64,000 bases of DNA from Anaerolineae bacterium (GCA_016931695.1 JAFGEI010000004.1:1-64000), one strand, 5' to 3'. Shown: positions 19,536-60,000, counted from the first letter of the stretch. Translations and numbers: made by a program. Notes: generated from the sequence alone by a model not told the origin.

Positions 19536-19564
19536 TTGTCCCTCAACACGGATTATGGTATAAT
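19536..19564 (+). promoter_or_regulatory. Consensus sigma70-like promoter of the tRNA cluster (TTGTCC-17-TATAAT)
   Basis: cTTGTCCctcaacacggattatggTATAATcc; the -10 ends 10 nt before tRNA-Gly. Confidence 0.6.
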
Positions 19565-19574
19565 CCAATTGTAT

Positions 19575-19647
<73 letters not shown>

Positions 19648-19659
19648 CTTTGTTTTTTG

Positions 19660-19732
<73 letters not shown>

Positions 19733-19783
19733 CCTGAGCAAATTTGAAAACCGGGCAGTCCAGCGGGCTGCCCGTTGCGATAG

Positions 19784-19866
19784 GGGGCGGTGGCGAAACG
19801 GCAGACGCCGGGGACTTAAAATCCTCTGTCCGAAAGGACGTGTGGGTTCGAATCCCACCCGCCCTA
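19784..19866 (+). tRNA. tRNA-Leu (anticodon UAA), long variable arm
   Basis: Acceptor ggggcgg/ccgccct, anticodon stem gggga/tcctc with loop cuUAAaa, variable arm tgtccgaaaggacgt, T-loop GGTTCGAAT. Confidence 0.85.
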
Positions 19867-20008
19867 CTCTCAATTGAGACCCCCAGGCGCCGTGGGCGCT
19901 CATACCTGGGGCCCGACCATCATTGTCGACGACATTGCAGCTATGAAGGGCCAGGATCATTGCTCCGCCAGCCGCGCCGGACAGACCGGAACGGTTGCTT
20001 TTAACCGC

Positions 20009-23000
20009 ATGCCCCGCCTCCAGGAGCCGCTGCCGCGGGGCGAGATTGAACTGCCTGCGCCCCCGAGCCGCCCCCCGCTGCCCAAGCTGAACTGGTTCTT
20101 GCTGCTGCTGCCCCTTGCCGGCCTCTTTGTGATGGCCGGGGTCTATGGCGGCCTCCGCGGCGACTGGCTGCTGGCGGCGCCGATGATCGCCCTCTCGACC
20201 ATTTCGCTGACCACCTCCATCGCCGGGCGGCTCGTCCAGCGCCGGCAGCACCAGCAGCAGGCGGAGGAGCAGGAGGCCGCCTACGCCGCGGCGCTGGAGC
20301 AAAAGCGGCAGGACCTGGAGCAGGCGCGGCAGGAGCAGCAGCGCATCCGTACCCAAGTTGACCCGGACCTGGCGTCGCTGCTCGACCGGGCCCAGCGGCG
20401 CGACCCCCGCCTGTGGCAGCGCCGTCCCGACGACGGAGACTTTTTGCACCTGCGGCTGGGCATCGGCTCGCTGCCCTCCACCGTCGCCGTGGCGGCCCCG
20501 CGCGCGCCGCTGCCCGATCCCCGCCTGGAGGCAGTCCTCGCCCTGGCGGCCGAGTACGCCGCTGTCCCCCAGGTGCCGCTGGCGGCGCGCCTCCGCGACG
20601 GGCCGTTGGGCATCGCCGGCCCGCTGCCCGACCGCACCGGCCTGGCCCGCGCGCTGCTCTGCAACCTGGTCGCCCACCACGCACCCGACGACGTCCACCT
20701 CCTTTGTCTCTACTCTCCCCTGCAGGCGGCGGCGTGGGCGTGGCTCAAGTGGCTGCCGCACACCTATGCCCTCCATCCGCAGAGCGGTCGTCACTACCTG
20801 GCGGCAGGCACCGCCGGGTTTGAGGTCGCGCTGAAGGAATTGTTGGAAGAACTGCGCCGCCGGCAGAACCAGCTTTATGCCGCCCAGCAGGAGGAGCGGG
20901 TGCCCGATTGGCCCTGGTTGGTGGTGCTGGTAGAGGACGAAGCGGCGGCCCGGGATGCCCCCGCGATCCACCTGCTGCTCTCGCCGGAGGGCCGGTTGTT
21001 GAAAGCAACCGCCCTCTTCCTGGTCGACGAGATCACCCAGGTGCCGATGGGCTGCCGCGGCGTCGCCGAGGTCCAGACGGACGGGCGGGTCGTCTATTCG
21101 ACTGCTGGCGCTGCGGGCGAGACCCACGCCTGCTGGCCCGAACAGGCCGACGTCACGCTCTGCGAGCGGATCGCCCGCAGCCTGGCGCCCCTGCAAGTGC
21201 GCGCCCGGCGCCTGGATGGCGTGCTGCCCAGCGAGGTTCACCTGCTGGCCATGTTGGGGATTGCTGCTCTCGACGCCTACGACGCTGCCCACTGCTGGGA
21301 GAACGGGGCGCCCTACGGCGCCCTGCGCTCCCCCATCGGCGTGCGGCGGGGCGGGGAGCCCATGCTGCTCGACCTGGCCCCCACCGGCCACGGCCCGCAC
21401 GGCCTGGTCGCCGGCACCACCGGCTCCGGCAAGAGCGAGCTGCTACAGACAATCGTGCTCGGCCTGGCCCTCACGCACCATCCCTACGAGATCGGTTTCG
21501 TGCTGGTCGATTTCAAGGGCGGCGGCGCCTTCTCCGGGCTGGTTGACCTGCCCCATACGTTGGGGCTGGTCACCGACTTGGGCGGGCGCCTGGCCGAGCG
21601 GGCGCTGCTCGCCCTGCGGGCCGAGATGGAGCGGCGCAAGCGGCTCTTTCAGCAGGCCGGTGTCGGCGACGTCGATGGCTACCAGGCCCTGTACCGGCAG
21701 GGGCGGATCGAGCAGCCGCTGCCGCGCCTGGTGATCATCATCGACGAGTTTGCCGAGCTGGTCAGCGACGAGCCGGACTTTATCGACGGGCTCGTCGGCG
21801 TCGCCCGCGTGGGCCGCTCGCTGGGGCTGCACCTGATCCTGGCCACCCAGAGCCCGGCGGGCGTGGTCAAGCAGCAGATTTGGGCTAACGCTCGCTTTCG
21901 CATTTGCCTGCGGGTCGAATCGCGCCAGGAGAGCAGCGAGATGCTGCACCGTCCCGAGGCGGCCGACCTGCCCCGCCTGCCGGGCCGGGGCTATTTCCAG
22001 GTTGGCAACAACGAGTTGTTCGAGCTCTTTCAGGTGGCGCGGGTGGCGGGCCGTTATCTCGCCGGGGTGAGCGAGCCGGCTGTGACGGCGCCGCCGTTGG
22101 CCATCGCCCGCGTCTCTGCCCAGGGCCAGCGGACGCACTTGTTTGACGACAGCGACGTGCAGCCGGGCCAGGCCGCCGGCCACCTGCCCGACCTCCCGCT
22201 CGTCGTCGCCCACCTGGCCCGCACCGCCCGCCGCCTAGGCGTCGACAAGTTGCCCCCGCCCTGGCTCGCTCCGCTGCCGGACCACGTCGCCCTGCCCGAC
22301 CTGCTCGATCGTGCCGCGGTGGGCGGATGGGACGAGGCGGAGGGGATGTGGCGTCCGGCGCGCTGCTGGCTGGCAGCGCCGTTGGGCCTGCTGGACGATC
22401 CGGCGCACCAGCGCCAGCTTCCGCTGTCGATCCCGCTGGAGCAGCAAGACGGGCACCTGATCATCGTCGGCGCGCCCGGCTCGGGCAAGGGCATGCTGGT
22501 GCGCACCCTGGTGATGGGCCTGGCCCACGCCCACGCGCCGGACGCGCTGCACGTCTACCTGCTCCAGTTCGGCGGGCAGGCGCTGCAGGTGCTCCAGCAC
22601 CTGCCCCACGCCGCCGGTCTGTTCACCCCGCTGGACGACGAACGGGTGTCGCGGCTACTGCGCCGCTTGCTCGACGAGCTGGAAGAGCGCAAGGCGCTGT
22701 GCGTCCGCGCCCACGTGGACGGCCTGGCCCGCCTGCGCGGCCTGGGCCCGGAGCGGGTGCCGCCCGCCATCCTCGTCGTCCTGACCGGCGCGGCGGAATT
22801 TCGCGCTGCCTTTCCGGACGAGACTCTTCATCTGACCCGCCTCGTCCGCGAGGGGGGGCCGTATGGGCTGCACGTCATCTTGACCGGCGACCGGGCGGGG
22901 GACGTCGCCCTGGCCATCAGCAGCGTCGTCGCCCGCCGCATCGCCCTGCGCCTGGCCGATGCCAGCGACTATGCCCTCGTGCTGGGGATGACGCCGCTGC

Positions 23001-24028
23001 GGGGCAGGGAGCCACGGCTGCCCTGCGGCCGGGGCTGGTACGGCCGCCCGCCGCTCGAATTCCAAGCCGCCGCTCCTGTCGGTGCGGGGGAGGGCGATGC
23101 GCAGTCGGCGGAGCTGCGGCGGATTGCGCTGCGGATGAACCAGGCCTGGCAGGGTCCGCGGCCAGAGCCGGTGGAGACGCTGCCGGCAGCGATCCCGCTG
23201 GCCCGGCTGCTGGCCAGCGCTGCTGCGCCGCCGCTCTCTCCGCTTGCCGCGCCGCTCGGCTTGGACGGCGTCCGCCTCCGCCCGGTCCTGATCGACCTGG
23301 CGCTGCGCGAGCCGGGGTTCGTCGTCGCCAGCACGCCCCAGGGCGGCAAGACGACGCTGCTGTGGACCTGGGCGCTGGCGCTGGCGGAGCGCAGCTCGCC
23401 GCAGCAGCTCCAACTGCTGCTCGTCTCCGGGCGCCGCGGCAGTCTTGGCCCCCTGGCGCGGCTGCCGCACGTCGTGGCGCACTTTGGGAGCCCCGAGCAG
23501 CTGCTGCGCGACGGCGGCATGGCCCGCCTGCAGGCGGAACTGGAGCGCCGCCAGGCCCGGCTGGACGAATCGCCGGAGAGCAGCGCTGCCTTCCCGCACC
23601 TGCTGGTGATGTTTGACGACTATGACGAGTCGTTCAACGCCGTCGGCAGCGAGGCCGAGGTGCAGCAGGGCCTCGAATGGCTCGCCCGGCGCGGGCGGGA
23701 CGTGAACGTCTGCACCGTCGTCACCGGCCCGCTGCCGGCAATGGGCGTGGGCTTCAACGACCCCCTGGTGCGCCAGCTCAAGGTTGGGCGCTCGGGCTTT
23801 CTGCTCCGCGTGTTGGACGCGAACGACCAAAACCCGCTGGGCGTGCGCCTGCGTCTTCCTGAAGGCACGGCCATGCCCGCGGGGCGCGGATACGTGGTGC
23901 GCAACGGCTCCGAAGAACTGTTGCAGGTCGCCACGCCGGGCGACGGCAGCGCCGTCGCCGCATGGGCCGCGCGGCTGGAAAAACGCTGGAGCGACGCCGG
24001 GGCGGAGCAGGCCGCCTGGCCAGTATAG
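20009..24028 (+). CDS. eccC: Type VII secretion FtsK/SpoIIIE-family ATPase, EccC-type (three P-loop ATPase domains, two N-terminal TM helices)
   Basis: N-terminus MPRLQEPLPRGEIELPAPP plus two TM helices, followed by RRDPRLWQRRPDDGDFLHLRLG, resembles actinobacterial EccC. Three Walker A sites: GTTGSGKSELLQT, GAPGSGKGMLVRT, STPQGGKTTLLWT. No FHA domains. Start uncertain; the ORF track ATG at 19874 abuts tRNA-Leu and lacks an SD. Confidence 0.85.
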   Translation: MPRLQEPLPRGEIELPAPPSRPPLPKLNWFLLLLPLAGLFVMAGVYGGLRGDWLLAAPMIALSTISLTTSIAGRLVQRRQHQQQAEEQEAAYAAALEQKRQDLEQARQEQQRIRTQVDPDLASLLDRAQRRDPRLWQRRPDDGDFLHLRLGIGSLPSTVAVAAPRAPLPDPRLEAVLALAAEYAAVPQVPLAARLRDGPLGIAGPLPDRTGLARALLCNLVAHHAPDDVHLLCLYSPLQAAAWAWLKWLPHTYALHPQSGRHYLAAGTAGFEVALKELLEELRRRQNQLYAAQQEERVPDWPWLVVLVEDEAAARDAPAIHLLLSPEGRLLKATALFLVDEITQVPMGCRGVAEVQTDGRVVYSTAGAAGETHACWPEQADVTLCERIARSLAPLQVRARRLDGVLPSEVHLLAMLGIAALDAYDAAHCWENGAPYGALRSPIGVRRGGEPMLLDLAPTGHGPHGLVAGTTGSGKSELLQTIVLGLALTHHPYEIGFVLVDFKGGGAFSGLVDLPHTLGLVTDLGGRLAERALLALRAEMERRKRLFQQAGVGDVDGYQALYRQGRIEQPLPRLVIIIDEFAELVSDEPDFIDGLVGVARVGRSLGLHLILATQSPAGVVKQQIWANARFRICLRVESRQESSEMLHRPEAADLPRLPGRGYFQVGNNELFELFQVARVAGRYLAGVSEPAVTAPPLAIARVSAQGQRTHLFDDSDVQPGQAAGHLPDLPLVVAHLARTARRLGVDKLPPPWLAPLPDHVALPDLLDRAAVGGWDEAEGMWRPARCWLAAPLGLLDDPAHQRQLPLSIPLEQQDGHLIIVGAPGSGKGMLVRTLVMGLAHAHAPDALHVYLLQFGGQALQVLQHLPHAAGLFTPLDDERVSRLLRRLLDELEERKALCVRAHVDGLARLRGLGPERVPPAILVVLTGAAEFRAAFPDETLHLTRLVREGGPYGLHVILTGDRAGDVALAISSVVARRIALRLADASDYALVLGMTPLRGREPRLPCGRGWYGRPPLEFQAAAPVGAGEGDAQSAELRRIALRMNQAWQGPRPEPVETLPAAIPLARLLASAAAPPLSPLAAPLGLDGVRLRPVLIDLALREPGFVVASTPQGGKTTLLWTWALALAERSSPQQLQLLLVSGRRGSLGPLARLPHVVAHFGSPEQLLRDGGMARLQAELERRQARLDESPESSAAFPHLLVMFDDYDESFNAVGSEAEVQQGLEWLARRGRDVNVCTVVTGPLPAMGVGFNDPLVRQLKVGRSGFLLRVLDANDQNPLGVRLRLPEGTAMPAGRGYVVRNGSEELLQVATPGDGSAVAAWAARLEKRWSDAGAEQAAWPV

Positions 24029-24046
24029 GATTGTCGCGCGATGGCG

Positions 24047-24325
24047 TTATACGACTCGCTGGTCGGTCTCTTCAAAGGCCATGGCAATGCGGCGCAGCTC
24101 GCTGGCGAGCGATTCGATGATCTCGCCCACCCGCACCCGCATCGTCGGCACCTCGTTGTCGAAAATGCGGGTATAGTCGATCTGCGCCATGCCGAGCCAC
24201 TCGCCCTGCAGGCCGTGCACGATGTTGATCGTGCTGTTCAGCACCCCGTCGATCTCCTGGCGGTGGCTGTCCAGCTGGGTGGCGGCGTTGCGCAATTGCT
24301 CGGGGGATACGCGAATTTGGGACAT
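24047..24325 (-). CDS. WXG100 family protein (EsxA/EsxB-like)
   Basis: 92-aa helical hairpin with central W-L-G (QGEWLGMAQ). N-terminus MSQIRVSPEQL. AGGAGGT SD 8 nt upstream. Converges on eccC. Confidence 0.85.
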   Translation of the reverse strand: MSQIRVSPEQLRNAATQLDSHRQEIDGVLNSTINIVHGLQGEWLGMAQIDYTRIFDNEVPTMRVRVGEIIESLASELRRIAMAFEETDQRVV

Positions 24326-24403
24326 CTTGTCATACCTCCTTGTGTGCTGCGTTGTGATTCAGCGGGTCAACCACGCCCGCTGAACGACAAGAATAGAACA
24401 GGG

Positions 24404-24679
24404 CTAGATGACGCGCTCGTCGGTCTCGCGAAAGACCTGGGCGATGCGCTGCAGCTCGGACGAAATCTCGCCCAGCAGCAGGGCAAACTGGGACATGCGG
24501 GGAACCATCTCGTTCCACTGGGCGTAGAACTTGTTCTGCGCCACGCCGTCCCACTCGACGTCCAGCGTTTCGATTGCGCCTTGGAGCGACTGGATGAGGG
24601 ACTCTGCCTCGGCCCGCTTGGTGTCAAAGAGGTGCGCGACACCCTCGAGCCTTTCCGGAGCAACAATGATCTGCGACAT
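24404..24679 (-). CDS. WXG100 family protein (EsxA/EsxB-like), second paralog
   Basis: 91-aa protein with MSQIIVAPERLEG and W-D-G (DVEWDGVAQ). Start trimmed to the ATG at 24679 with a GGAGGT SD. The ORF track extends it to 24886 without support. Confidence 0.85.
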   Translation of the reverse strand: MSQIIVAPERLEGVAHLFDTKRAEAESLIQSLQGAIETLDVEWDGVAQNKFYAQWNEMVPRMSQFALLLGEISSELQRIAQVFRETDERVI

Positions 24680-24718
24680 GGTAACCTCCGATTGGACAGG
24701 ATTGTGGATTCGTGTATA

Positions 24719-24746
24719 ATTATACATGTATTGCGGGAAAATGCAA
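24719..24746 (-). promoter_or_regulatory. Minus-strand TTGCAT-16-TATAAT promoter for the WXG100 gene pair, inside a TATAATTATA palindrome. A plus-strand TTGGAC-17-TATAAT (24692-24720) is arranged back-to-back with it.
   Basis: Reverse complement reads cTTGCATtttcccgcaatacatgTATAATtatac. Plus strand reads TTGGACaggattgtggattcgtgTATAAT. Confidence 0.5.
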
Positions 24747-24952
24747 GTTTCGAGACAACGAGATGACAACGCAGCCCACGAAGCGAGCTTGACCTCTCTG
24801 CTGGTTCCCGCTGAACACCATGACCGGCAGCATCCGCTCTGGGCAACCGACGTAGCTGACAATGAAGAACCAACATGCCGCTCCATTCGAGTACACGCGA
24901 AAACTGTATAATCTCTCTCTTGAGTGTCGGTCTAACCAAGCGGCAGAAAACC

Positions 24953-25001
24953 GGCCACGAATTGACGCGAATTCACACGAATTGACGCAAAATTCGTGGC
25001 C
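24953..25001 (+). promoter_or_regulatory. Leader element upstream of the effector gene: tandem direct repeats ACGAATTGACGC (24957-24968 and 24977-24988) embedded in an inverted repeat ggccacgaatt...aattcgtggcc
   Basis: Seen directly in the sequence. Repeat starts are 20 nt apart. Followed by hairpins cccaggct-tgcc-agcctggg and gggggaaaaagtgggtgc...gcccacctctttcccc before the SD at 25155. Confidence 0.45.
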
Positions 25002-25165
25002 GAAAATTGCCGGTAATACCCAGGCTTGCCAGCCTGGGTGCTCTCTTGTACCGGAGAGGGGGAAAAAGTGGGTGCTGGCGCCCACCTCTTTCCCCTTCCC
25101 GGGCTTGGGAGAGCGCCGAGGGGAAGCTGGCTGAGCAATTACCATACGGAACAAAGGAGGAAACA

Positions 25166-26329
25166 ATGACGCAAATCCGTATCAATACCGAACTGGCGCA
25201 GGAAACCGCGCAGCGGCTCGCGCGGGGTGGAAGCCAGCTGGTCGAGATCGACCGCGTCCTGCGAGGCGCGGTCGGCAGCCTCGATACCAGCGCCTGGGAC
25301 GGGGTCAGCCGTTCGCGGGCCGAGCCGCTGCTCTCGCAGGTGGGATCGGCCGGCGGGCGCCTGGTCGCCGAAATCACGGGCCTCGGCCAGACGTTGGCCC
25401 GCACGGCCGAGGCCTTTGCCCGGGCGGACCAGGCCGCTGCCCGCAGCCTGGCGGGGATGCCGTGGGTCGAGTGGGGCGGAGGTTCCAGCGCCCTTCCGCC
25501 CGGCGATGTCCCGCCAGGGGACAACCCGGACCTGGACGGCGTCAGGGGAGCGGAGGGCGCGGTCTATGCAGCTGTCGAGGGCGAGTCCTTCATCCCCGGT
25601 GCCGGCGATGCCGGTGCCATTCATCCCAACGACGTCCACCAAGGCCGACTGGGCGACTGTTACTTTCTCGCCTCCCTGGCGACCATCGCCGACCAAAACC
25701 CCGCCCTGATCGAGCGGATGGTTCACGACAACGGTGACGGCACCTACACCGTCACCTTTTACCGTCGCAACAGCCCCTTTGCTTTTTGGCAGCCGGACTT
25801 TAGCCCTGTCGAGGTCACCGTGACCCCTGACTTTCCCCTCGACCACAACCGGCCGCTGTTTGCCCAACCCGGCGATGCCGCCGGGTCGCAGCAAGAGCTG
25901 TGGACGATGCTGGTCGAAAAAGCCTATGCCAGCTACCACGGCGGCTACCACGACATCGAAGGCGGGTGGGGCCACACGGCGATGGAGGAGCTGACCGGAA
26001 CCGCCAGCGACTGGTACGCTCCCTCAGCCATCGACCTCGATACCCTGGCGGCGTACAGCGAGAATGGATATGGGATGACCGCCTCCAGCATGGCCGATTG
26101 GGAGGTTCCCGGCGTGGTCGACATCCCCGACCAGACCGACCTGCATCCCCTGTACGTCAGCGGCGACCTCGCCGCCAACCACGAGTACTACGTCTCGCAC
26201 GTCGACCGGGAGTTGGGAACAATTACCTTGCGCAATCCCTGGGGCTGGGGCTGGGGCGAGACCACGCTGTCATTCGAGGAATTTCAGGCCACCTTTCGAC
26301 GGGTTTCAGTCAACCCGCTCACACCATAG
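25166..26329 (+). CDS. WXG100-domain protein fused to a calpain-like (peptidase C2) cysteine protease; putative T7SS-secreted effector/toxin
   Basis: N-terminal 100 aa (MTQIRINTELAQETAQRL...SAWDGVSRS) form a WXG100 helical hairpin. C-terminus carries calpain hallmarks: QGRLGDCYFLASLATIA (Cys), WTMLVEKAYASYHGGY, HEYYVSHV (His), LRNPWGWGWGE (Asn). AAGGAGG SD 6 nt before the ATG. Confidence 0.8.
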   Translation: MTQIRINTELAQETAQRLARGGSQLVEIDRVLRGAVGSLDTSAWDGVSRSRAEPLLSQVGSAGGRLVAEITGLGQTLARTAEAFARADQAAARSLAGMPWVEWGGGSSALPPGDVPPGDNPDLDGVRGAEGAVYAAVEGESFIPGAGDAGAIHPNDVHQGRLGDCYFLASLATIADQNPALIERMVHDNGDGTYTVTFYRRNSPFAFWQPDFSPVEVTVTPDFPLDHNRPLFAQPGDAAGSQQELWTMLVEKAYASYHGGYHDIEGGWGHTAMEELTGTASDWYAPSAIDLDTLAAYSENGYGMTASSMADWEVPGVVDIPDQTDLHPLYVSGDLAANHEYYVSHVDRELGTITLRNPWGWGWGETTLSFEEFQATFRRVSVNPLTP

Positions 26330-26340
26330 GAGGGAAACTC

Positions 26341-26661
26341 GTGAATTCGCAAACTTATTTCATACGCGCCAGCACCCAGTTGAACCTGCCCGGCGTGCAG
26401 ATTGCTGCCGGCAACTTGATGATGGCGGAATACCGGGATCGAGAAGGGATCGCCCAGCGCGGCCCGACGGCGATGCTGTGGATCCAGCAGCCGGGCGACC
26501 CACCCTTGACGCAGCAGGTCCGCGCCCATGTCGGGCAGGTCGTCGACGCCGGTCCCTACACCGTCCGCATCGCCGACATCGGCGTGGACGAGGGCGGCGG
26601 CTTTGTCCAGGCCGTCCTGCGGCCGGCCGGTGAGGATTTGGAGCGGCCGTGCTCGTCGTGA
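26341..26661 (+). CDS. Small hypothetical protein (106 aa); candidate immunity protein or inhibitor for the calpain-like effector
   Basis: GTG start 12 nt after the effector stop with a GGAGGG SD. It is the C-terminal part of ORF-track entry 25900..26661 in the same frame. No recognisable domain. Confidence 0.55.
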   Translation: MNSQTYFIRASTQLNLPGVQIAAGNLMMAEYRDREGIAQRGPTAMLWIQQPGDPPLTQQVRAHVGQVVDAGPYTVRIADIGVDEGGGFVQAVLRPAGEDLERPCSS

Positions 26662-27701
26662 CCATCAGCGCTCCGGAGCTGCCGGAGCCGGTCGACCTGG
26701 AGCTGCCGGGGGACGTGTGCGTAGAGCGGCTGCTGCCCGGCTTGATCGCTGCCCTGCAGCTGCCGCCGGGCAGCTACCGCCTCGTTCACCGCTCCCGTCT
26801 CCTGGCGCCGGAGCAAACCTTGGGCGACGCCCAGGTCCTGATGGGCGACAGCTTGGCGCTGCTGGCAGAGTGCCAAGATGATCCGCCGGTGTCGGAGCTG
26901 GCAGGAGCGGCCGAGCCGGTCCGCCTCACCGACCTGGTCGCGCCCCGCGCCACATCTCTGCCGCCGGACCGCACCGGAAAGACAATCGCCATCTGGTCGG
27001 GTCCGGCGGGCGGCACCGGGCGGACGACGCTGGCGCTGGCGCTGGCCCTGCTGCTCGCCGGGCGGGTGGGCGAGGCGGTCCTGCTGGCGCTTGCCGAACC
27101 CGCCCTCTCCGCTTACCTGCGGCTGCCCCGCACCCCCAACGCCAGCGCCTTTTTCGAGACCGGCGGCCTGCGGGCAGCGGTGCAGCGCGTGAGCTGGGAA
27201 AGAAAAGGGGCGGAGATTGCGGCGCTGGCGGTCATCCTGGGCCCGGCCCGGCCCGGCGAGGGCGTTGCGGAAGCGGAGCGGGTGGTGGAATTGGTGGCAG
27301 CCGCGCGCGCCGCCTATCCGCTCGTCCTGCTCGACCTGCCCGCCCTGACGCCGGGGGGGAATCCCTGGTGCCTCGGGCCGCTGGCCCAGGCCACCGACCT
27401 GCTGCAGGTCGCCCGGCCGACGACGGTCGGCGTGGCGGCGACGGTGGAAGCATTGGCTGCGTTGCGGGACCTGGGCGGGGACGTCCAAGCCCACCTGGTC
27501 CTGGTGCGCTGGGGAGAAGGGGAGCTGACCAGGCCAGACTTTGTCCGCGCCGTGCGGGAGCTGTGGGGCAACTGCCCCGCGGTGGCGGCAGAGGTCCCCT
27601 TTCTCCCTTCCCTGCCGGCGGCGCTGGAACGGGGGGAGATGCCGCGAGAGGTAGAGTACATTCGAGCGTTGGAGGGGGTTATGGCCGCCATCGGCACCTG
27701 A
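26649..27701 (+). CDS. YukD/EsaB-like ubiquitin-fold (beta-grasp) domain fused to a MinD/ParA/CpaE-like P-loop domain with a degenerate Walker A
   Basis: N-terminal 75 aa (MLVVTISAPELPEPVDLELPGDVCVERLLPGLIAALQLP...QVLMGDSLALL) match the EsaB/YukD pattern. The P-loop is KTIAIWSGPAGGTGRTTLALA (deviant Walker A, Lys to Arg). GTG start overlaps the upstream gene by 13 nt. Confidence 0.65.
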   Translation: MLVVTISAPELPEPVDLELPGDVCVERLLPGLIAALQLPPGSYRLVHRSRLLAPEQTLGDAQVLMGDSLALLAECQDDPPVSELAGAAEPVRLTDLVAPRATSLPPDRTGKTIAIWSGPAGGTGRTTLALALALLLAGRVGEAVLLALAEPALSAYLRLPRTPNASAFFETGGLRAAVQRVSWERKGAEIAALAVILGPARPGEGVAEAERVVELVAAARAAYPLVLLDLPALTPGGNPWCLGPLAQATDLLQVARPTTVGVAATVEALAALRDLGGDVQAHLVLVRWGEGELTRPDFVRAVRELWGNCPAVAAEVPFLPSLPAALERGEMPREVEYIRALEGVMAAIGT

Positions 27702-27756: not shown

Positions 27757-28176
27757 TCACTCTTGGCGTTTCGATCCCTCTTGCGGACCCGCAAGTTGGG
27801 CCAGGCCATAGATGAACAACCCGCCGCCCAAGACAATGAGCCCGACCGCCACCACGTCCTTGGGGAGATCGACCCCCACCCGGATGTTCATCACCTCGGG
27901 GGCCATGGGCAGGTAATAGGCGGTTCTCGTGTCCCCCACGTCGGGGTGGGTCCCCCGCCGGGTATCGATCGAGCGGACCAGTTCGCCGTCGGCGGTATGG
28001 AACTGGTATTCTATCCGGTACTCGTATCGCTGGTCCAGCGGGTCGAAATAATGCTCTACCCCGGCGACATGGGCCGTTGTCGATTCCCCGAGGACCACGA
28101 TAAAGCCCAGCGCCATGACCAGCAGGCCGGTGATGATGGGGCCAAAGCCCAAGCGGAAGCGTGTGCCGAGAACCAC
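27757..28176 (-). CDS. Small membrane protein, DUF3592-like (TM / beta-rich / TM)
   Basis: Two predicted TM helices flank YEYRIEYQFHTADGELVRS. GTG start with AAGGAG 8 nt upstream. Confidence 0.6.
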   Translation of the reverse strand: MVLGTRFRLGFGPIITGLLVMALGFIVVLGESTTAHVAGVEHYFDPLDQRYEYRIEYQFHTADGELVRSIDTRRGTHPDVGDTRTAYYLPMAPEVMNIRVGVDLPKDVVAVGLIVLGGGLFIYGLAQLAGPQEGSKRQE

Positions 28177-28500: not shown

Positions 28501-30111
28501 ATGTCCTGGGGATGCGCCGGTCACGATGATCATCCCAAGACGGAGTGCGATATGACCGAACAGGATGTCGACCAGCAACCAGAGCCGGCCAAGCTGCACG
28601 AGTCGGCCTCGCCAATATCTTGGTATCTTGGGCCTCTCGCCATTCTTTTCTTGCTTTCACTTGTCCTATACATTGCCCCTTCCTCCCCGCTGCGCGATCT
28701 TTTGCTGCTCCTCTTTGGCGGATTGTCCTTGATCACCGCGACGCTGATCCTGACCACCTTTATCTGGGTCCGGGTCCCATTTCTCGGCTGGGCCGTGGTG
28801 GCGTCACTGCTGATCGTGTGGGGGATATGGGCTTTTTATACCCTCAAACCACTGTGGCCTCTTTCGTTGGAGACCGCCCTGTACTTTGCGCCTATGCTGC
28901 TGTCGGTTTTTCTCCCCCTCTTTCTCGCCGTCATGGTCTTTTTCATCGGCCTGCGCATCGTGTCGGGATTCCTGCTGCCCATCGAGCCACCCTTTGAAGA
29001 GCAGAGCTCGCTGGTCGCGAAAGTGAGGGCGTATCTACAGGACGAGCGGTTCACCCAGGCCTACGAGTTGTTTGCGGGCTATGTCCGGAGGCACTATTTT
29101 CCCATGTACGTGATGACCCGCGCGCGGCGGCAGCAGGACAAGCTTGCCCGCCGCGGCAAGGGCAACGCCTACGACTATCGGGGCAAGCGCGGCGTGATCA
29201 TCAGCGACTGTGACCACATCGTCGCGGTGTCGGACGGGATCACGTTCAAGGGCGTGCAGGGCCCCGGGGTGATCTTTACGAACAAGTTCGACCTGCCGCA
29301 GCACGTCATCGACCTGCGCCCCCAGCTGCGCACGAAAACGATCCAGGCCTGGACCCAGGATGGCATCGAGGTCAAGGTGTTGTTCTTTGCCCCCTTTCAG
29401 CTCGATCGCGGCGGGCAGCCAGCCAAGCTGGGGCAGGCCATCCCTTACGACGAAGAAGCAGCTTTCGACCTGGTGCATCACCAGGTGATGGAATACTCCA
29501 GGAGTGGGTTGGAGCCCAAGCAACGTATTGCCTGGGACGACCTGCCGGTGGAAATTGGCACCTCGCTGCTGCAAGATGTTCTGGGCAAGTACCGCTTTGA
29601 CGAGTTGTACGAGCCATCCTCCGATGGCGGGAAATGGCCCCGCCCGCGCATTGCCGACGAATTTGCCGACCAGTTCGAGACCAAGCTGAAGGAAGTGGGA
29701 CTGGTCCCGGTGGGGGGAGGGATCAGCAACATCAAGCCGGCGCGGGGAGAGCAGGTGCTTCCTTCCCGCACGCAGAGCTGGCGCGCTCATTGGGCCCGCC
29801 AGGTGATGCAGTTGCAGGCCAAGGGCCAAGAAGAGCGACTGCGGCGGATCGAACAGGTCCGCGCCGCGGCTTATGTCGAGCTGGTAGAAAAACTGGGGCA
29901 GCGGATCGTCGATTTGGAACAGGCCGGGGTGCCCGTCGAATCGACGGCGATCATCCCGCAGCTGCTGCAGGTCCTGGATGAAATCGTCCACCGCCCGGCA
30001 GTGTGGCAGCGCGTGGAATACACCACCCGGCGGAGAATGCAGGTCTTTCGTGAAGACGTCGAGGCGGCGGGGACCAAAAAGGGAGAGTTGTTAGACGATG
30101 AACCCCTTTAA
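28501..30111 (+). CDS. Membrane protein with a C-terminal SPFH/band-7-like domain
   Basis: Four to five N-terminal TM helices. C-terminal region (IQAWTQDGIEVKVLFFAPFQL..., coiled-coil EERLRRIEQVRAAAYVE) is SPFH-like. TTGACA-16-TATGAT promoter at 28395-28422. The ATG at 28549 is an alternative start. Confidence 0.6.
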   Translation: MSWGCAGHDDHPKTECDMTEQDVDQQPEPAKLHESASPISWYLGPLAILFLLSLVLYIAPSSPLRDLLLLLFGGLSLITATLILTTFIWVRVPFLGWAVVASLLIVWGIWAFYTLKPLWPLSLETALYFAPMLLSVFLPLFLAVMVFFIGLRIVSGFLLPIEPPFEEQSSLVAKVRAYLQDERFTQAYELFAGYVRRHYFPMYVMTRARRQQDKLARRGKGNAYDYRGKRGVIISDCDHIVAVSDGITFKGVQGPGVIFTNKFDLPQHVIDLRPQLRTKTIQAWTQDGIEVKVLFFAPFQLDRGGQPAKLGQAIPYDEEAAFDLVHHQVMEYSRSGLEPKQRIAWDDLPVEIGTSLLQDVLGKYRFDELYEPSSDGGKWPRPRIADEFADQFETKLKEVGLVPVGGGISNIKPARGEQVLPSRTQSWRAHWARQVMQLQAKGQEERLRRIEQVRAAAYVELVEKLGQRIVDLEQAGVPVESTAIIPQLLQVLDEIVHRPAVWQRVEYTTRRRMQVFREDVEAAGTKKGELLDDEPL

Positions 30112-31330
30112 ACACTTTTGGAAACATCTTGTTCCGGTCCTGCTCACCTTTGGCCCCATCGTCTTGATCCTGGTCTTGTTGGGGCTGGTCCTGACGTCGT
30201 GGGAGGTGGACCCGCTTCCCCATCTCCTCAACGCGGCGATCGCCGTGCTGCCCCTGGTGCTGGCCCTGATTCTCTTGCCCTATTCTGCCGCCCGTTTCCT
30301 GCGCGATCTCTACGATATCGAAAGCCTGGCGGATGCCTATGCTTTCCTCAGCCGGCTGGTGTTCAGGCCGTGGTCGTTTAACTATCTCAAAATCGAAGAC
30401 ACGCGAGTCGTGTTGGGGGAGGACAGCGTGCTGCACCGCGTCGGCGGTCCGGGCAACCTGATCATCTATAACGACAGCGCGGTCGTCACCGAGCGTTTCG
30501 GCAAGCTGTGCCGCGTGCTCGGCCCCGGCTTTCCGGCCCTGCAGCGGTTCGAAAAGGTGTGGGACATTGTCGATCTGCGCTACCAGTATTGGCCCTTCCA
30601 GGTCGATGGCATGACGCGAGAGGGCATCCCGGTTTCTTGCCTGGCGAAAATCAAGTTCAAGATCGACGATCGGGAGACGGAACAATCGCCGCCCAAGAGC
30701 CCCACCGATGCAAACCCCTACCCCTTTACAGAGGAGGCCGTCTTTTGCGCGGCGACCAGCAGCTGGATACGTCCGCCGGATTGGGAAAAGTGGCCGCACG
30801 ACTGGGCCGGGCGAGTGGTGGTGAGCTACACGGAGGGGGTATTGCGGAATATTTTGGCGGAATACCGGCTGGACGAGCTTGTCGCACCGGTCGAAGCGGG
30901 CTCGCCGCACCCGCGCGAGGAGATCTGTCGGCGCCTGGAGGAGGCGCTGCGGAAGCGGGAGCGCAACGTGGGGGCGCGGATTCTCTCCGTGGAGTTGGGC
31001 GAGATGCAGTTTGAGGACGAGCAGATCCCCCTGCAGTGGGTCGAGGCCTGGAAAGCGGAGTGGGAGGAGCACGCCGTTCGCGCCCGCGCAGAGGGCGAGG
31101 CGCAGTTGCTGAGCGTGGACGCCGTGCAGGCGGCGGTGCAGGCAGAGATGATCACCGCCGTGGTCGCGGCTTTACAGTCGCTCGACACCAGCGTCGAGTC
31201 CCGCGCGCTGGTGGCCCGCCTGGCGCAAATGTTCCACTGGATGTCCTACAACCCGCTTTCCCGCACCCACCTGCCGCCCGAGGTGATGCACACGTTGGGC
31301 GTGATCCAGGAGAATCTGCTGGGGGAGTAA
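30098..31330 (+). CDS. SPFH/band-7 (flotillin/stomatin-like) membrane protein
   Basis: Two N-terminal TM helices, an SPFH core (VVVSYTEGVLRNILAEYRLDELV...GARILSVELGEMQFEDE), and an Ala/Glu-rich coiled coil (ARAEGEAQLLSVDAVQAAVQAEM). 14-nt overlap with the upstream gene. Confidence 0.7.
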   Translation: MNPFKHFWKHLVPVLLTFGPIVLILVLLGLVLTSWEVDPLPHLLNAAIAVLPLVLALILLPYSAARFLRDLYDIESLADAYAFLSRLVFRPWSFNYLKIEDTRVVLGEDSVLHRVGGPGNLIIYNDSAVVTERFGKLCRVLGPGFPALQRFEKVWDIVDLRYQYWPFQVDGMTREGIPVSCLAKIKFKIDDRETEQSPPKSPTDANPYPFTEEAVFCAATSSWIRPPDWEKWPHDWAGRVVVSYTEGVLRNILAEYRLDELVAPVEAGSPHPREEICRRLEEALRKRERNVGARILSVELGEMQFEDEQIPLQWVEAWKAEWEEHAVRARAEGEAQLLSVDAVQAAVQAEMITAVVAALQSLDTSVESRALVARLAQMFHWMSYNPLSRTHLPPEVMHTLGVIQENLLGE

Positions 31331-45786: not shown

Positions 45787-47181
45787 CTAGAACTTTTTCG
45801 CGCTGCGCTGGACGCTGAACGCGTCGGCGACCGCCGCCTTGGCCTGCGCCGGTGCCTGCTTCATCTCCTGGAACCGGGCGGCCATCTTGCTCTGTTCCTC
45901 TTCGGCCCGTTCCTGTCCCAGCAGCGCGGCATATTCCCGCAGTTGGCCCAGTTCCGCGTCCGCCCGTTGGGCTCCTTCGGCGGTGCTCTTGGCCATTGCC
46001 CGCGAGACCCCGAGGACGTTGGCCGCCTTCATCTGCTCCAGCACCCGCTCCACGACAGGAATCACCGCCCCTTCCCGCCGGTCAAAGGCCGCGTGATCCT
46101 TAAAGCGCACGGTGACCCGGTTCAGGGGAGTGGTCAGGTGGTTGCCGGCCGGCGAGCGGTAGTCCAGCGCGCCCTCGACGCTCAGCCGCGAACCGGCCGG
46201 CTGGGCGGGAAGGGTCAGCCGGATGGGCACCTGGAGCTCGATGCCGCTGGGGACGTCGCCGATCGAGACCGTGGCCTCGCCCGCGCCCTGGCGGGCAGGG
46301 TAGGCCGCGGAGAGAGGAAATAGTGCCGCGCCGGCGGGGATCTGCAGGCGAATCGTCATCTCGCGTGCCGCCAGGGCGGCGACCTCGCCGAGCTCGCCCG
46401 TCAGGTAGGCGCTGATCTGCCCGGCGTCGGTGACGTGGTAGAACCGCCCCCCGCCCTGGGTGGCGATTTCGGCCATCAAGGCCTCGTTATAGTCGCTGCC
46501 CACTCCCAGCGTCGAGACGATGACTCCCTGCTGGCGAGCCTCGAAACCCCGCTGGCCCACCATCTCCACGTCCGTCTCCCCGACGTTGGCCTGACCATCG
46601 CTGAGCAAGAGCACCAGGTTGGTCTCTTGCTTGCGGGCGGCGACCTTTTCCAGCCCCATCTCGAGCCCGCCGCAGAGGGCGGTCATTCCTCCAGCCTGCA
46701 TCTCTTGCAGCGCGCTTTCGACGACGCGGCGGCTCTGGTCGTCGATCTCGGCCGGCTCGAAAATGCAGCGCGCGTCGGAGGAGAAAATGACCAGGGAAAA
46801 GACGTCGCCGTCATGCAGGCGGCGCAGCGCATGGCGCACTGCCTCCTTGGCCTGGCCCAGCTTGGGCCCCCGCATGGACCCCGAGACGTCGAGGACGGCG
46901 GTAAAGTTGAGCGTCTGGCGTCCTGTTTCGGTAGCCGCCGTCTCTTCGGTCGGCACCTGGTTGGGGGTTCGAACCGTGACCAGCAGGTAGCGGTCGACGT
47001 TGCGGCCGCTGGGAGCAGCAACCTGGTCCAGCTCCATCTGCGCCTGGACGTAGGAGGCCGCCTGGTCGGGGGCAGGGGGCGTCTCGAAATCCAATTCCCC
47101 GCCGCAGCGGCTGCACGTCTTGACCCCGACCGGTTCGTCCTGCAGCAATCCGCAGTATTGGCAACGCATCAATCTCGGCAT
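45787..47181 (-). CDS. von Willebrand factor A domain protein with an N-terminal zinc-ribbon
   Basis: CQYCG...CSRCG zinc ribbon and MIDAS DVSGSM...T...D. Start trimmed to the ATG at 47181 with a GGGAGGG SD. Confidence 0.75.
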   Translation of the reverse strand: MPRLMRCQYCGLLQDEPVGVKTCSRCGGELDFETPPAPDQAASYVQAQMELDQVAAPSGRNVDRYLLVTVRTPNQVPTEETAATETGRQTLNFTAVLDVSGSMRGPKLGQAKEAVRHALRRLHDGDVFSLVIFSSDARCIFEPAEIDDQSRRVVESALQEMQAGGMTALCGGLEMGLEKVAARKQETNLVLLLSDGQANVGETDVEMVGQRGFEARQQGVIVSTLGVGSDYNEALMAEIATQGGGRFYHVTDAGQISAYLTGELGEVAALAAREMTIRLQIPAGAALFPLSAAYPARQGAGEATVSIGDVPSGIELQVPIRLTLPAQPAGSRLSVEGALDYRSPAGNHLTTPLNRVTVRFKDHAAFDRREGAVIPVVERVLEQMKAANVLGVSRAMAKSTAEGAQRADAELGQLREYAALLGQERAEEEQSKMAARFQEMKQAPAQAKAAVADAFSVQRSAKKF

Positions 47182-47499
47182 ATTTTCCCTCCCGGGCAAC
47201 TCCACCGGCTCGACTCGCCGGGGATGATCCTTTGTCCGTTGTCACTGCGGGGCAATCCTTACTCATTGTTTCCCCCGCCCGGTCGAGTATAGCACGGAGG
47301 GAATCGCATGTCAAAAGCAATCCGCTGCCTGGCGCGCATTGATTGCGCCAGGGGCGCGCGCCATGGTATAATACCGGCAGCTGCTCGGCCCATTGTCCCG
47401 AGTTCATTCCCGACCCTCTCTTTTCCCACCGCGGAAGAGCATCCAAGAGGATGGGCTGAGTCGCGGTTTTTAACATCTCGTTTTAAGGAGGCAATAGAT

Positions 47500-56863: not shown

Positions 56864-57051
56864 GTGGCGAAAAAGCCGCTTCCCCGGCCGGATGCCGGCC
56901 AGCCTGGCGGCAATTGCAACGTAACTCAAATGTAACGCTCCATTATCCTGGCCCATGGTACACTTGTGAGTACCTAATCTGACTCTGTCGCGCTAACTGC
57001 TCCGACAGTAGGCCAGGTGATTACAGCCAATCAATGGCAGGAGGTTTTGCC

Positions 57052-60000
57052 ATGCCAAAACGGATTTTCCTTCTGTTGGGTACAATTTGCCTTAGCTTGA
57101 CCGCGCTCTGGGGACTGGCGGCACTCCTTTTCCCAGCCGTTCACGCCGACGGACCGCAGGGCTGCATCGAGATCACTGCCGACATCGCTGCGGATACCAC
57201 CTGGGATGCTCCCTGCTATCGGGTCATGACCTCTACGGTCACCGTGCTGCCCAACATCATCCTGACCATTTCCCCCGCCGTCACCGGCACGCGGGTCGAG
57301 TTCGTCGACAACGCCCAACTCCAGGTAATGGGCACCCTGCGGGCCCTGGGCAGCCCGGCCCATCCCATTACTTTTACCTCGGCCAACCCTGGCAGCGGCG
57401 AATGGGTCGGCATCATCCTGGAGGATGATAGCGGCGGGGACCGCATCCAGTATTCGACCGTCGAGTACGCCCGCACCGGGGTCAAGATCAACGACGAGGA
57501 CGACGTACAGGTCCTGAGCAGCACGTTTCGCTACAACGGCGGCAGTGGGAGTCACGAGGGGGCCATCGGCGGCGACACGGACTATTCCCGCATTGCCGGC
57601 AACATTGTCTATTCCTGTACCAACGGCATCGTCCTGAACGAGTCTTTTGACAACGAGATTACGGGCAACACTATCTATGACATCGAGCGGTATGGCGTGG
57701 CCTTTGTCGAGGATCCGACGGTAGGCGGCTCGAACAACCTGGTCGCCGACAACACGATCTATAACTGCACCGCAGGGGCGGTGCGGCTGGAGAACGGCGC
57801 TTTCAACGACCTGCTGGGCAACCGGGTCTATCTCAACCCCGGCGGGGCCCTCTACCTTTCCGACCAGGTCGGTTCGAGCGTGCAGGCCAACCACGTCTAT
57901 AGCAACGGCGGTGGACTCGACTATGCCGCCGCGCTCTACGTCGCTGGCACCAGCGCCATCGACACCGTGGCCCAGAACGTGATCTACGAGGAAACGACTG
58001 GTGCCGAGGCGGTCTGGTTTGAGGAGGGCAGCGCCATGTGGCCCGGATCGCTGATGGCGGTCAATGCCCTTTGCTCGATCGACAGCTACGAGCTGCAGAA
58101 CGACGGGTCGACCATCGAAGCGCCTCACGACTGGTGGAGCAGCAACGACCCGGCGAGCAACATCCTCGGCCCGGTCAATTACACCCCCTGGATCAGCCTC
58201 TCCATCACCGGCGACGCCCGCGGCGTGATCACGGTCACGCTGCGGGACGCGGACGGCCTGACCGTGCCGCCGCCGCCCGACCCGCAGGCGCCTCCGGCGC
58301 CCAACGCCCGCCGGGTCCGCCTGTCGACCAACTGGGGCAGCGTCAGCCCGGCGCTTCTTGAGGTGAACGACGCCGGCATCGGCACGGCGACGCTGATCCC
58401 CGGCGGGGGGACAGCCCCACCGACCATCATCCTCACCGCGACGGGTTTCTGCGGCTATGCCACCTCCGGCGTGGTCCAGCTGCCCAACCTGGCGCTGACC
58501 AAGACGACCGCCGTCAGCCAGGTGGTCGCCGGGGGGACGATTGCCTACCAGATCCATTATCTCAACGACAGCGCCGTCGCCGCCAGCGACGTGCACATCA
58601 CCGACACGCTGCCTGCTGGGACGACCTGGGCTGGCGACACTGCGCCGGCGGCGGGTTGGACCCGCCTGTCGACCGCGCCGCCCATTTGGCAGCGGGCGAC
58701 GCTGGGGCCCGGCGTGAACGGCAGTTTTACTCTCTCCGTCACTGTCGCCCCCACCGCGCCCTGCGGCGCCGAATTGGTCAACTGGGCCGCCATCGGCACG
58801 GATCTGCTGGAGACGAGCCTGGCCGATAACAGCGACAGCGCAGGGCCGGTGACGGTCATCGGCCCCGACGTGACTATCGCCAAGACGACCCCGCTGCTCG
58901 AGGTGGCGGCGGGCGGCCTGCTCACCTACACCATCGCCTACAGCAACCCCGGCCAGGCCGGCGCGGCGGACGTGTTCGTCGGGGACGACCTCCCTGCCTG
59001 GACCAGCTACGTCGCCGACGACAGCGGCCTGCCCTGCCCGGCCTGCATCCCCGGCGGGACGGGGCCGCTGGAGTGGGATGCGGGTTCGCTGAACGCCGGC
59101 GAGGGGCACAGTTTCAAGCTCGTGCTGCGGGTTGACGGCGATCCCGCCGCCTGCGGCGCGGCGCTGACCAACGCTGTCGCCATCAGCACCAGCACCCCCG
59201 AGTGCGACGTCCTGCCCAACAGCGCGGCGGCGACGCCGGTGACGGTCATTGGCGCCGACGTGACCATCGCCAAGACGACTGCGCTGACCGAGGTCGTGGC
59301 GGGCGGCCTGCTCACCTACACCATCACCTACAGCAACGTCGGCCCCGTTGATGCGGCGGGGGTGGTGATCACCGACCTGCCGCCGACCTGCACCACCTAC
59401 GTCACCAGCAGCCCGCCCTGCGCAAGCTGCCCGCCCACCGGCCCGCTGACCTGGGATATTGGGCCGCTGGCGGTCGGCCAGCGGCAGAGCATCGAGCTGG
59501 TGCTGCGGGCCGACGAGGATCCGGCCTGCTACGGCCAGGGGCTGGTCAATACCGCGATCATCAGCACGACCACGGTCGAGTGCGGGACGGCGCCGAATAT
59601 CGCCTATTCCGAGTTGACCACCCTCGTCCGCGGCGGGGTCGACCTGGTGGTGGTCAAGGACGACGACATCGGCCCCATTTCGCTGGGCGGGCCTGCACGG
59701 CGGACAGCGCTGGAGCGCCTGCTCGCCCCTGTCCCGACTGCCCACCGCGATTTCGTCTACGAAGGGGACATTGTCACCTACACCATCGCCGTGGTCAACG
59801 TCGGCACCGTCACCGCAACCCGCGTCGTGCTGACCGAGACCCTGCCCCAGCACACCGACTACCTGGGCGTCGGCTGGAACCTGGTCGCCGGCCGCACTTA
59901 TACCCAGGCGGTGGGCACGCTGGCCCCCGACGAGGGGCGCATCTTTTACTTTGTCGTCCAGGTGCACGACCCGATGACCGAGTGCGTCACCAACCTGGTC

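Follow-up and report, generated by a model that had tools for sequence, protein, structure and literature searches.

We have confirmed that positions 19943-27701 of a 64,000-nucleotide stretch of Anaerolineae DNA (GCA_016931695.1 JAFGEI010000004.1:1-64000; the whole stretch is called the window below) form a real and unusually small type VII secretion system (T7SS) gene cluster of an uncultured Chloroflexota bacterium. This cassette, carried by an Anaerolineae (Chloroflexota) metagenome-assembled genome (MAG), comprises genes for an EssC-type ATPase, two WXG100 proteins, a WXG100-calpain fusion, a 106-amino-acid (aa) open reading frame (ORF) and a YukD-domain protein, the last three being closely packed or overlapping. 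The locus is already annotated automatically as T7SS-type by NCBI and is not a categorically new system; what defines it as a variant is the fusion of YukD to a TadZ-like domain, together with its minimal gene set. Taking together the gene content, domain architectures, motif states and synteny that we observed, we think it likely that the locus is a compact effector-export cassette, native to the Anaerolineae genome and working by the mechanism that we propose below.

Components and conservation of the cassette

Families were called at the curated cut-offs of Pfam and NCBIfam, in a scan of about 45 ORFs of the window. Related loci (L numbers) came from homologue look-ups and collection scans and were compared by tblastn; identities are given at the protein level. 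An earlier reading, made from the sequence alone, had pointed to three T7SS hallmarks, a triple ATPase, two 92-aa WXG100 proteins and a YukD-like protein. All were found in place and pass the curated thresholds, and only the 106-aa ORF is without a family. The features are as follows.

19943-24028, plus strand: EssC/TsxC-type membrane ATPase, 1361 aa from the ATG at 19943 (PF01580, TIGR03928, transmembrane (TM) scan)
21413-21436, plus strand: Walker A of ATPase domain D1, GTTGSGKS, canonical (motif scan; kept in 5/5 orthologues)
22469-22492, plus strand: Walker A of ATPase domain D2, GAPGSGKG, degenerate (motif scan; regular expression matched 2/5 orthologues)
23330-23353, plus strand: Walker A of ATPase domain D3, STPQGGKT (motif scan; kept in 5/5 orthologues)
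24047-24325, minus strand: WXG100 protein 1 (WXG1), 92 aa, with WLG and C-terminal FEETD (FxxxD); PF06013 47.6 bits, TIGR03930 55 bits
24404-24682, minus strand: WXG100 protein 2 (WXG2), 92 aa, with WDG and C-terminal FRETD; PF06013 60.3 bits, TIGR03930 70.5 bits
24683-25165, no strand assigned: divergent promoter region, with a shared palindromic -10 element and a promoter-like site
25166-26329, plus strand: effector, 387 aa, WXG100-like head and calpain-type protease (PF06013, PF00648, calpain-1 alignment)
26341-26661, plus strand: 106-aa all-beta protein, candidate cognate immunity or inhibitor protein (starts 11 nt past the effector stop; 13-nt overlap with the next gene)
26649-27701, plus strand: YukD-TadZ/MinD-like fusion, 350 aa (PF08817, AlphaFold2 model, Foldseek, invariant motif)
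26994-27029, plus strand: degenerate Walker A of the fusion, WSGPAGGTGRTT (motif comparison)

The ATPase passes the EssC model TIGR03928 (847.1 bits, cut-off 778.4) as well as those for EccCa (TIGR03924; 518.7 bits, cut-off 509) and EccCb (TIGR03925; 374.9 bits, cut-off 346.6). FtsK_SpoIIIE (PF01580) matches it in three stretches (E=1.5e-79), and NCBI names it 'type VII secretion protein EssC'. Its ORF spans 19874-24028 on the plus strand, with the NCBI start at a GTG at 19892 (1378 aa). The sequence-only reading had begun the locus at 20009, which is too far downstream: the conserved FNRMPR begins at 20000, and the likely start is the ATG at 19943. About 45 residues precede the first of two hydrophobic TM helices (approximately nt 20084-20224), and D1 has its Walker B, VIIIDE, at residue 597. 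A Pfam scan found no FHA or Yop-YscD_cpl domain, and the alignment to B. subtilis YukB begins at YukB residue 225, past the YukB FHA domains. Judged by score (365 bits over 1123 residues for T. curvata EccC; 345 bits over 759 residues for YukB), the window's EssC appears about equally close to the actinobacterial and firmicute references.

Database homologues from Anaerolineae are 50-66% identical to this EssC, some of them with zinc-ribbon domains. Identities are 38-40% for Ktedonobacterales, 39% for Symbiobacteriaceae, the closest outside Chloroflexota, and 31-35% for Paenibacillus and FHA-bearing Bacillota (a look-up of the Paenibacillus EssC P0142 gave no match). A rough neighbour-joining tree from BLOSUM distances, which has no T7SSa-j references and serves solely to show this grouping, places it in a Chloroflexota-specific clade.

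Both WXG100 proteins exceed the cut-offs of PF06013 (27.3 bits) and TIGR03930 (44.85 bits) and have the WxG, so that the original WXG100 calls hold under profile search. WXG1 has orthologues of 56-75% identity in L004, L007, L010 and L011, compared with 34-41% identity to WXG2, which makes up a separate orthologous group (64-74% identity). This separation suggests an old EsxA/EsxB-like pair, with WXG2 the presumed heterodimer partner of WXG1. An exact-sequence look-up of WXG2 found no match. WXG1, WXG2 and every effector head keep the WxG and a helix-end FxxxD without variation.

Scans of genome and metagenome contigs with a YukD-MinD profile gave 4 and 5 loci, so the cassette statistics rest on 8 distinct loci, in all of which the YukD-MinD fusion is full length. 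The complete order EssC> <WXG1 <WXG2 effector> partner> YukD-MinD> is present in five of the eight (the window, L004, L007, L010 and L011), with cassette protein identities of 45-75%. Their flanks are unrelated: Opp and tRNA genes and rpsO-pnp in the window, FtsK and GntR in L004, a heavy-metal ATPase and glycosidases in L011. The proposal of a minimal or divergent architecture is borne out by this recurrence, since the same cassette stands in four other Anaerolineae contigs, between different flanks and without a known membrane core partner. In L003 (282-6335), where the cassette has no EssC beside it, the single WXG100 gene is directly adjoined by one for a 2017-aa Ser/Thr kinase-AAA_16-TPR-GAF protein; this neighbour could be a regulatory link or a coincidence.

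The WXG pair is separated from the effector operon by a 483-nt intergenic region. The palindromic -10 element GTATAATTATAC at 24714-24725, about 30 nt upstream of WXG2, is common to the window, L003, L010 and L011, and its occurrence in four loci is consistent with divergent transcription of the pair and the operon. A promoter-like TGGACA-16-TATAAT is found on the plus strand at 24693-24720, and Rfam matched no riboswitch or leader in the region. As a separate observation, the effector leader at 24951-25001 has CACGAATTGACG three times over, at a period of 10 nt, and a perfect 11-nt inverted repeat, GGCCACGAATT...AATTCGTGGCC, encloses the copies; a GC-rich hairpin follows at 25017-25040. The CACGAATTGACG repeat element has no Rfam match and is absent from the corresponding intergenic stretches in six related loci, and we rejected the tandem repeats as a part of the system because they are not conserved there.

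The effector, its partner and the YukD fusion

The earlier description of a WXG100-fused toxin-like gene proved accurate: the ORF at 25166-26329 on the plus strand matches both PF06013 and PF00648, and NCBI names its product 'WXG100 family type VII secretion target'. In the head (residues 1-100), AWDG and FARAD stand at residues 43 and 84, respectively, and the Peptidase_C2 match (PF00648) scores 90.5 bits against a cut-off of 23.8. Cys165 (GDC; nt 25658-25660), His339 (NHEYY) and Asn357 (RNPWG) align to calpain-1 and are invariant in 5 orthologues; on this alignment the C-terminus is a calpain-type cysteine protease with its Cys/His/Asn triad intact, an identity that the sequence-only reading had not given.

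Across loci, effector heads are conserved (42-48% identical) and the C-termini swap between calpain, GH24, M23 and unassigned types, along with partner genes. L007 has the same WXG head (42-43% identity) twice: one copy is joined to a GH24 phage-type lysozyme and followed by an LprI lysozyme-inhibitor lipoprotein, and the other is joined to an M23 peptidase and followed by a PD40 lipoprotein. More variants exist in L011 and L022, and PD40-type propellers come after the non-calpain effectors of L007 and L011. In tblastn comparisons of the related loci, the 106-aa ORF stands solely behind calpain-type effectors, and thus tracks the calpain domain and not the WXG head. A cognate immunity or inhibitor protein would be expected to co-vary in this way, which makes the 106-aa protein a candidate for such a role. 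A conserved trafficking head, variable C-termini and a co-varying partner together make up the polymorphic toxin/immunity pattern. In PADLOC nothing matched the effector, the small ORF, the fusion protein or the membrane genes that lie downstream.

Proteins that join WXG100 to calpain occur widely in Chloroflexota, also in the cultured Herpetosiphon llansteffanensis, and Chloroflexi were listed among the hosts of T7SS(WXG) polymorphic toxins by Zhang et al. (2012; PMC3482391), in whose catalogue the word 'calpain' has zero occurrences. The same calpain-type domain is found without a WXG head in Myxococcus and Polyangiaceae, and also within proteins carrying the JGI name 'Flp pilus assembly pilin Flp' (P0193, P0198, P0195, P0205-P0212 in all). 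These cases are a hint that the calpain module may be delivered by other routes too, possibly Tad-related.

For the last gene of the cassette the sequence-only reading was right in part. A YukD/EsaB-like domain is there (PF08817, 32.6 bits, cut-off 27), but it covers only residues 4-71 of a 350-aa fusion with a TadZ/MinD-like domain. The layout is a YukD beta-grasp at residues 1-75 (26649-26873), a disordered linker at 76-107 and a MinD/ParA fold at 108-350. An AlphaFold2 model from 18 homologues has a predicted local distance difference test (pLDDT) score of 82.8, and above 90 in the beta-grasp. The top PDB matches of the C-terminal domain in Foldseek are MinD (1hyq and 3q9l), FlhG (4rz3) and Soj (2bek), with E about 1e-10 and a target-length-normalised TM-score of 0.74.

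The deviant Walker A of MinD is xKGGxGKT, and compared with it the P-loop of the fusion, WSGPAGG[TS]G[RQ]T, which is invariant in 18/18 homologues, is missing both lysines. Compared with the TadZ consensus K/RGGXGXS/T (bioRxiv 10.64898/2026.07.08.737194), the same 18 sequences keep the GGxGxT core and have lost the leading K/R (P-A-GG-[TS]-G-[RQ]-T). Because both lysines are lost, and from the comparison with the TadZ consensus, we regard the C-terminal domain as TadZ-like and further degenerated; the lost Walker lysines predict a loss of ATP hydrolysis. The closest relatives of the ATPase domain are Anaerolineae TadZ-like proteins of about 440 aa (53-57% identity), which share the motif and have a receiver-like N-terminus. 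The paralogues P0018, P0024, P0025 and P0036 keep this receiver-like N-terminus, and P0024 lies within a Tad locus. The shared motif and different N-terminus make the fusion look like a TadZ-type protein in which the receiver has been exchanged for YukD. The locus of P0024 (L002 4100-20146) is an Anaerolineae Tad-like one, with RcpC/CpaB, a second CpaE-like ATPase, CpaF, DUF6941 and a Big_13 protein; a 1268-aa protein without a Pfam match is encoded directly upstream of P0024.

The fusion is rare. Searched exhaustively with a profile, 1.84 billion representative proteins gave about 13-14 clusters covering it at full length, and the GTDB species representatives hold 4 fusion loci, all in Anaerolineae MAGs. 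NCBI records the window's protein, with identical sequence, as 'MAG: hypothetical protein JW900_00300 [Anaerolineae bacterium]', and the YukD-TadZ/MinD arrangement is not described in the literature that we searched.

In Chloroflexota YukD has three alternative fusions, to the TadZ-like domain, to FHA (in L022) and to the N-terminus of EssC (in Ktedonobacterales). The second of these is the terminal gene of L022, encoding a 212-aa YukD-FHA protein whose YukD domain is 40% identical to the window's. The three fusions argue that YukD works physically with EssC, bringing to it a regulatory or assembly module. The contact between the ubiquitin-like (Ubl) domain of EccD and EccC, cited by Garrett et al. 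(PMC11217815), agrees with the idea of YukD as an EssC adaptor.

Some details of these and other YukD loci are worth recording. L022/L023 (1-21300) have the same cassette layout, an EssC (P0066) with DZR/zinc-ribbon domains and three WXG-headed effectors; upstream are two Ser/Thr kinases, a PP2C, an FHA-NERD protein and an FHA-ABC transporter, and an IS21-type transposase pair lies downstream in L022. The EssC homologues of L013/L014 (10001-14398; Ktedonobacterales), with YukD fused N-terminally to the ATPase, are 1465-1470 aa long. There are no adjacent WXG100 genes in L013/L014, and two VWA-domain genes adjoin, vWA being a T7SSc component (TscE). Finally, in P0306 (912 aa), P0371 (1003 aa) and P0404 (696 aa) the YukD part is matched in 4, 8 and 5 stretches, respectively; these appear to be poly-YukD repeat proteins.

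A proposed mechanism and its alternatives

We propose that EssC oligomerises in a single membrane to serve as the motor and possibly the channel, and that it may be the sole membrane component. The WXG1/WXG2 heterodimer would be exported and would license export, like EsxA/EsxB. The effector would be recognised through its WXG100-like head and FxxxD helix-end motif and, once exported, would act against competitors or on the environment, with the 106-aa protein neutralising the protease inside the producer. The YukD domain would dock on EssC, as is thought for the EccD Ubl domain and for EsaB, and the TadZ-like, probably non-hydrolysing domain would be a dimerising, scaffolding or positioning module, filling the role that FHA, kinase or pseudokinase partners have in other T7SS subtypes. 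A bolder version can be imagined, in which YukD is a universal EssC-docking adaptor in Chloroflexota with interchangeable modules, YukD-TadZ is a Rosetta stone for a positioning or assembly mechanism shared by T7SSg/h and Tad, and no membrane component other than EssC is required, so that this would be the minimal one among known T7SS; we offer it as a speculation more doubtful than probable.

Several points weigh against the proposed mechanism. The canonical T7SS export motif is YxxxD/E, which the helix-end FxxxD resembles but differs from, and the loss of the Walker lysines predicts, without proving, that ATP hydrolysis is lost. L003 and L009/L021 carry an effector-partner-YukD-MinD block without adjacent EssC, and in L005 the YukD-MinD gene is alone, beside glycosyltransferases; from these arrangements, the link of the fusion protein to EssC is not an obligatory one. 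The 106-aa protein lacks a signal peptide, and no inhibitor fold is recognisable in it. The target of the effector may be bacterial, eukaryotic or self. The locus is known from uncultured MAG sequences alone, from which we infer secretion, and, as the main uncertainty, an unrecognised membrane partner may be encoded beyond the 64-kb window.

This last point underlies the alternative that survives best, namely that the cassette is the cytoplasmic and substrate part of a larger T7SS whose essential membrane components, of known or unknown kind, have their genes elsewhere. Every T7SSa and T7SSb system characterised by experiment needs extra membrane proteins (PMC11217815), and our view of the source genome is 64 kb wide. 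L003, with its WXG/effector/YukD-MinD block, and the EssC-bearing L015 are different contigs of one assembly, GCA_974323135.1, which shows that components can be dispersed. On the other side, the absence of EccB/EccD/EssB-type genes, noticed in the original reading, extends further: EccB, EccD, EccE, MycP, EssA, EssB and EsaA have no Pfam/NCBIfam match among the window ORFs and are not listed for the related loci in their gene tables. No further conserved gene is shared by the five independent cassettes, whose flanks are unrelated, and Garrett et al. predict comparably simple sets for T7SSg (PMC11217815). The membrane protein genes downstream of the window's cassette, one for a 139-aa TM protein (27757-28176) and two for SPFH/Band-7-like proteins (28552-31330), were considered as partners and rejected, as they have no counterparts beside other cassettes. 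We regard a larger system as possible but unlikely. The rejected candidates sit between the cassette and rpsO-pnp; the 139-aa gene is on the minus strand, and the tandem pair (519 and 410 aa) are paralogues, 23% identical over about 330 aa, of which the second alone matches SPFH/Band_7.

A second alternative concerns the effector, which could be a secreted protease for the producer's own use, in nutrition, surface-protein processing or filament development, rather than an antibacterial toxin, with the 106-aa protein as an export chaperone or co-secretion partner. T7SS substrates often require small partner proteins (PMC11217815), and the 106-aa protein, which as noted above lacks a signal peptide and resembles no known fold of an immunity or inhibitor protein, would fit; its confident all-beta model returned no informative structural match, and its sequence no family. 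Calpain-type proteases are not in the 2012 polymorphic-toxin catalogue. Calpain is, moreover, the commonest effector type in the cassette and rather conserved (47-55% identity). Against this, the heads in sister loci are attached to peptidoglycan hydrolases, and after each of these comes a matching lipoprotein of inhibitor type (LprI); the small ORF, moreover, goes with the calpain domain and not with the WXG head. Own use of the protease thus seems to us somewhat less probable still, an unlikely reading that the toxin/immunity pattern disfavours.

The sequence-only reading had also raised the possibility that the locus is a horizontally acquired island integrated at a tRNA site. The tRNA cluster directly before the locus is real: ARAGORN and Rfam both place tRNA-Gly, tRNA-Cys and tRNA-Leu at 19575-19867, and Rfam finds nothing else. 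The cassette starts 25-75 nt past tRNA-Leu, between housekeeping flanks (an Opp/Dpp ABC transporter upstream, rpsO-pnp downstream), its neighbours differ in every related contig, and EssC has 72% GC compared with about 64% for the window. Nevertheless, the window contains no integrase or recombinase, no direct repeat of any tRNA 3' end occurs within 12 kb downstream, and none of six related loci has a tRNA near the cassette. The GC content at third codon positions (0.81-0.89) and the codon-usage distance (0.47-1.25) of the cassette are inside the range of the other 37 window genes. The high GC of EssC is due to codon positions 1 and 2, that is, to amino-acid composition, and after analysis by codon position and codon usage we no longer took it to indicate horizontal transfer. 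Differing flanks are in any case to be expected, given how distant the related genomes are (45-60% protein identity). With no integrase, no repeat, no tRNA elsewhere and in-range codon usage, a recent insertion is unsupported, and we consider the island improbable. A further reading, that the large ATPase is a DNA translocase of FtsK-type chromosome segregation or TraB-like conjugation that has the WXG genes beside it by coincidence, would fit the shared FtsK/SpoIIIE domain and the automatic JGI name of homologues ('DNA segregation ATPase FtsK/SpoIIIE'), but is so improbable as to be effectively refuted by the profile scores, which point to T7SS as originally proposed (70 bits for the FtsK equivalog NF007615, cut-off 1566, and 23 for TraD, cut-off 366, while the EssC and EccC equivalogs pass), by the three tandem ATPase domains and two TM helices of the window protein, by the strict synteny of the ATPase with WXG100 genes, and by the presence in L004 of a genuine FtsK, with alpha and gamma domains, as a separate gene.

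Two features of the surroundings may be added. A strong promoter-like TTGTCC-17-TGnTATAAT precedes the tRNA cluster at 19536-19564, and no terminator-like hairpin is predicted between tRNA-Leu and the EssC start (19868-19942), so transcription from the tRNA promoter might continue into EssC. Far downstream, at 57034-61911, is a gene whose 1626-aa product has six DUF11 repeats and a beta-helix/NosD region; it is probably a large protein of surface or S-layer type and is unrelated to the cassette.

Comparison with known type VII and Tad systems

Work on T7SS rests on two phyla. Of the ten catalogued subtypes (a-j) none is from Chloroflexota, where so far the mere presence of WXG100 and FtsK-like genes had been noted; T7SSc-j were defined in Bacillota and Actinomycetota alone, in a survey that mentions neither Chloroflexota nor MinD (Garrett, Higginson & Palmer 2024; PMC11217815). 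Against this background, a candidate minimal T7SS of six genes and one membrane protein offers a system for asking what EssC needs to form a channel. The natural YukD-TadZ fusion suggests a testable explanation for the co-location of T7SS and Tad and for the Ubl as an EssC adaptor, and the calpain-type effector family and its small all-beta partner are both missing from the polymorphic-toxin catalogue. The cassette also suggests contact or competition weaponry in the filamentous, environmentally abundant Anaerolineae. As this significance is drawn from MAGs, its value lies in hypotheses and not in a demonstrated new mechanism.

With T7SSa (ESX) the window system shares an FHA-less EccC-like ATPase that passes the EccCa and EccCb models, a WXG100 pair, a YukD-fold domain within a larger protein (EccD in ESX) and a helix-end xxxD motif resembling YxxxD/E. 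It differs in having no EccB, EccD, EccE, MycP, EspG or PE/PPE, and in carrying its Ubl on a soluble MinD-fold domain rather than on a polytopic membrane protein. [quoted passage not shown] Unlike T7SSb, its EssC is without FHA domains, EssA, EssB (the pseudokinase) and EsaA are missing from the window and the related cassettes, there are two WXG100 paralogues instead of one, and the effector head is a 100-aa WXG domain, not LXG. T7SSc differs by its TscD membrane kinase, TscE vWA, TscF PPM phosphatase and TscG EspG-like protein, all absent from the cassette. A VWA protein is encoded at 45787-47202, 18 kb from the cassette, and is unlinked to it in other loci; kinases and PP2C occur among the related loci solely in L022, the one with a zinc-ribbon EssC and YukD-FHA.

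The likeness of the effectors to polymorphic toxin systems with WXG/LXG heads lies in a constant T7SS trafficking head, swappable enzymatic C-termini and adjacent partner genes, and the difference in the Peptidase C2 C-terminus and 106-aa partner, which the catalogue does not list (PMC3482391). TadZ/CpaE has in common with the fusion a MinD/ParA fold and, in part, a Walker-A-like motif, of which the GGxGxT core, without the P-loop lysine, is kept. A further parallel is TsfV, the T7SSf protein with a TadZ-like receiver domain, TadZ-ARD (PMC11217815). Unlike TadZ/CpaE, the fusion has YukD in place of the N-terminal atypical receiver, has lost the signature K/R and stands in a T7SS context, not a Tad one.

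An EccC-like N-terminus without FHA combined with a Firmicute-type YukD had seemed unusual in the sequence-only reading. It is not, because T7SSc, g and h all have an FHA-less TsxC and a YukD-like TsxB (PMC11217815). T7SSg is itself a simple set, of two WXG100 proteins, a Ubl, an ATPase and a beta-propeller, and T7SSg and T7SSh are always beside Tad pilus genes, for reasons left unexplained (PMC11217815). The Symbiobacteriaceae locus L016, where WXG, the EssC that is 39% identical to the window's and a free 80-aa YukD stand right next to a full Tad locus, matches these descriptions. The window system differs from T7SSg/h in its host, which is a chloroflexote and not Acetivibrio, Paenibacillus or related Bacillota, in a Ubl that is fused to a TadZ-like degenerate ATPase domain rather than free, and in the absence from the window of Tad genes, of a beta-propeller (TsgL DUF5050) and of TshG/TshM. 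It resembles them in its FHA-less TsxC ATPase, its YukD-like Ubl, its few other components, its link to Tad and, for T7SSg, its two non-identical WXG100 proteins. Overall, among the described types, the Anaerolineae cassette is closest to T7SSg/h.

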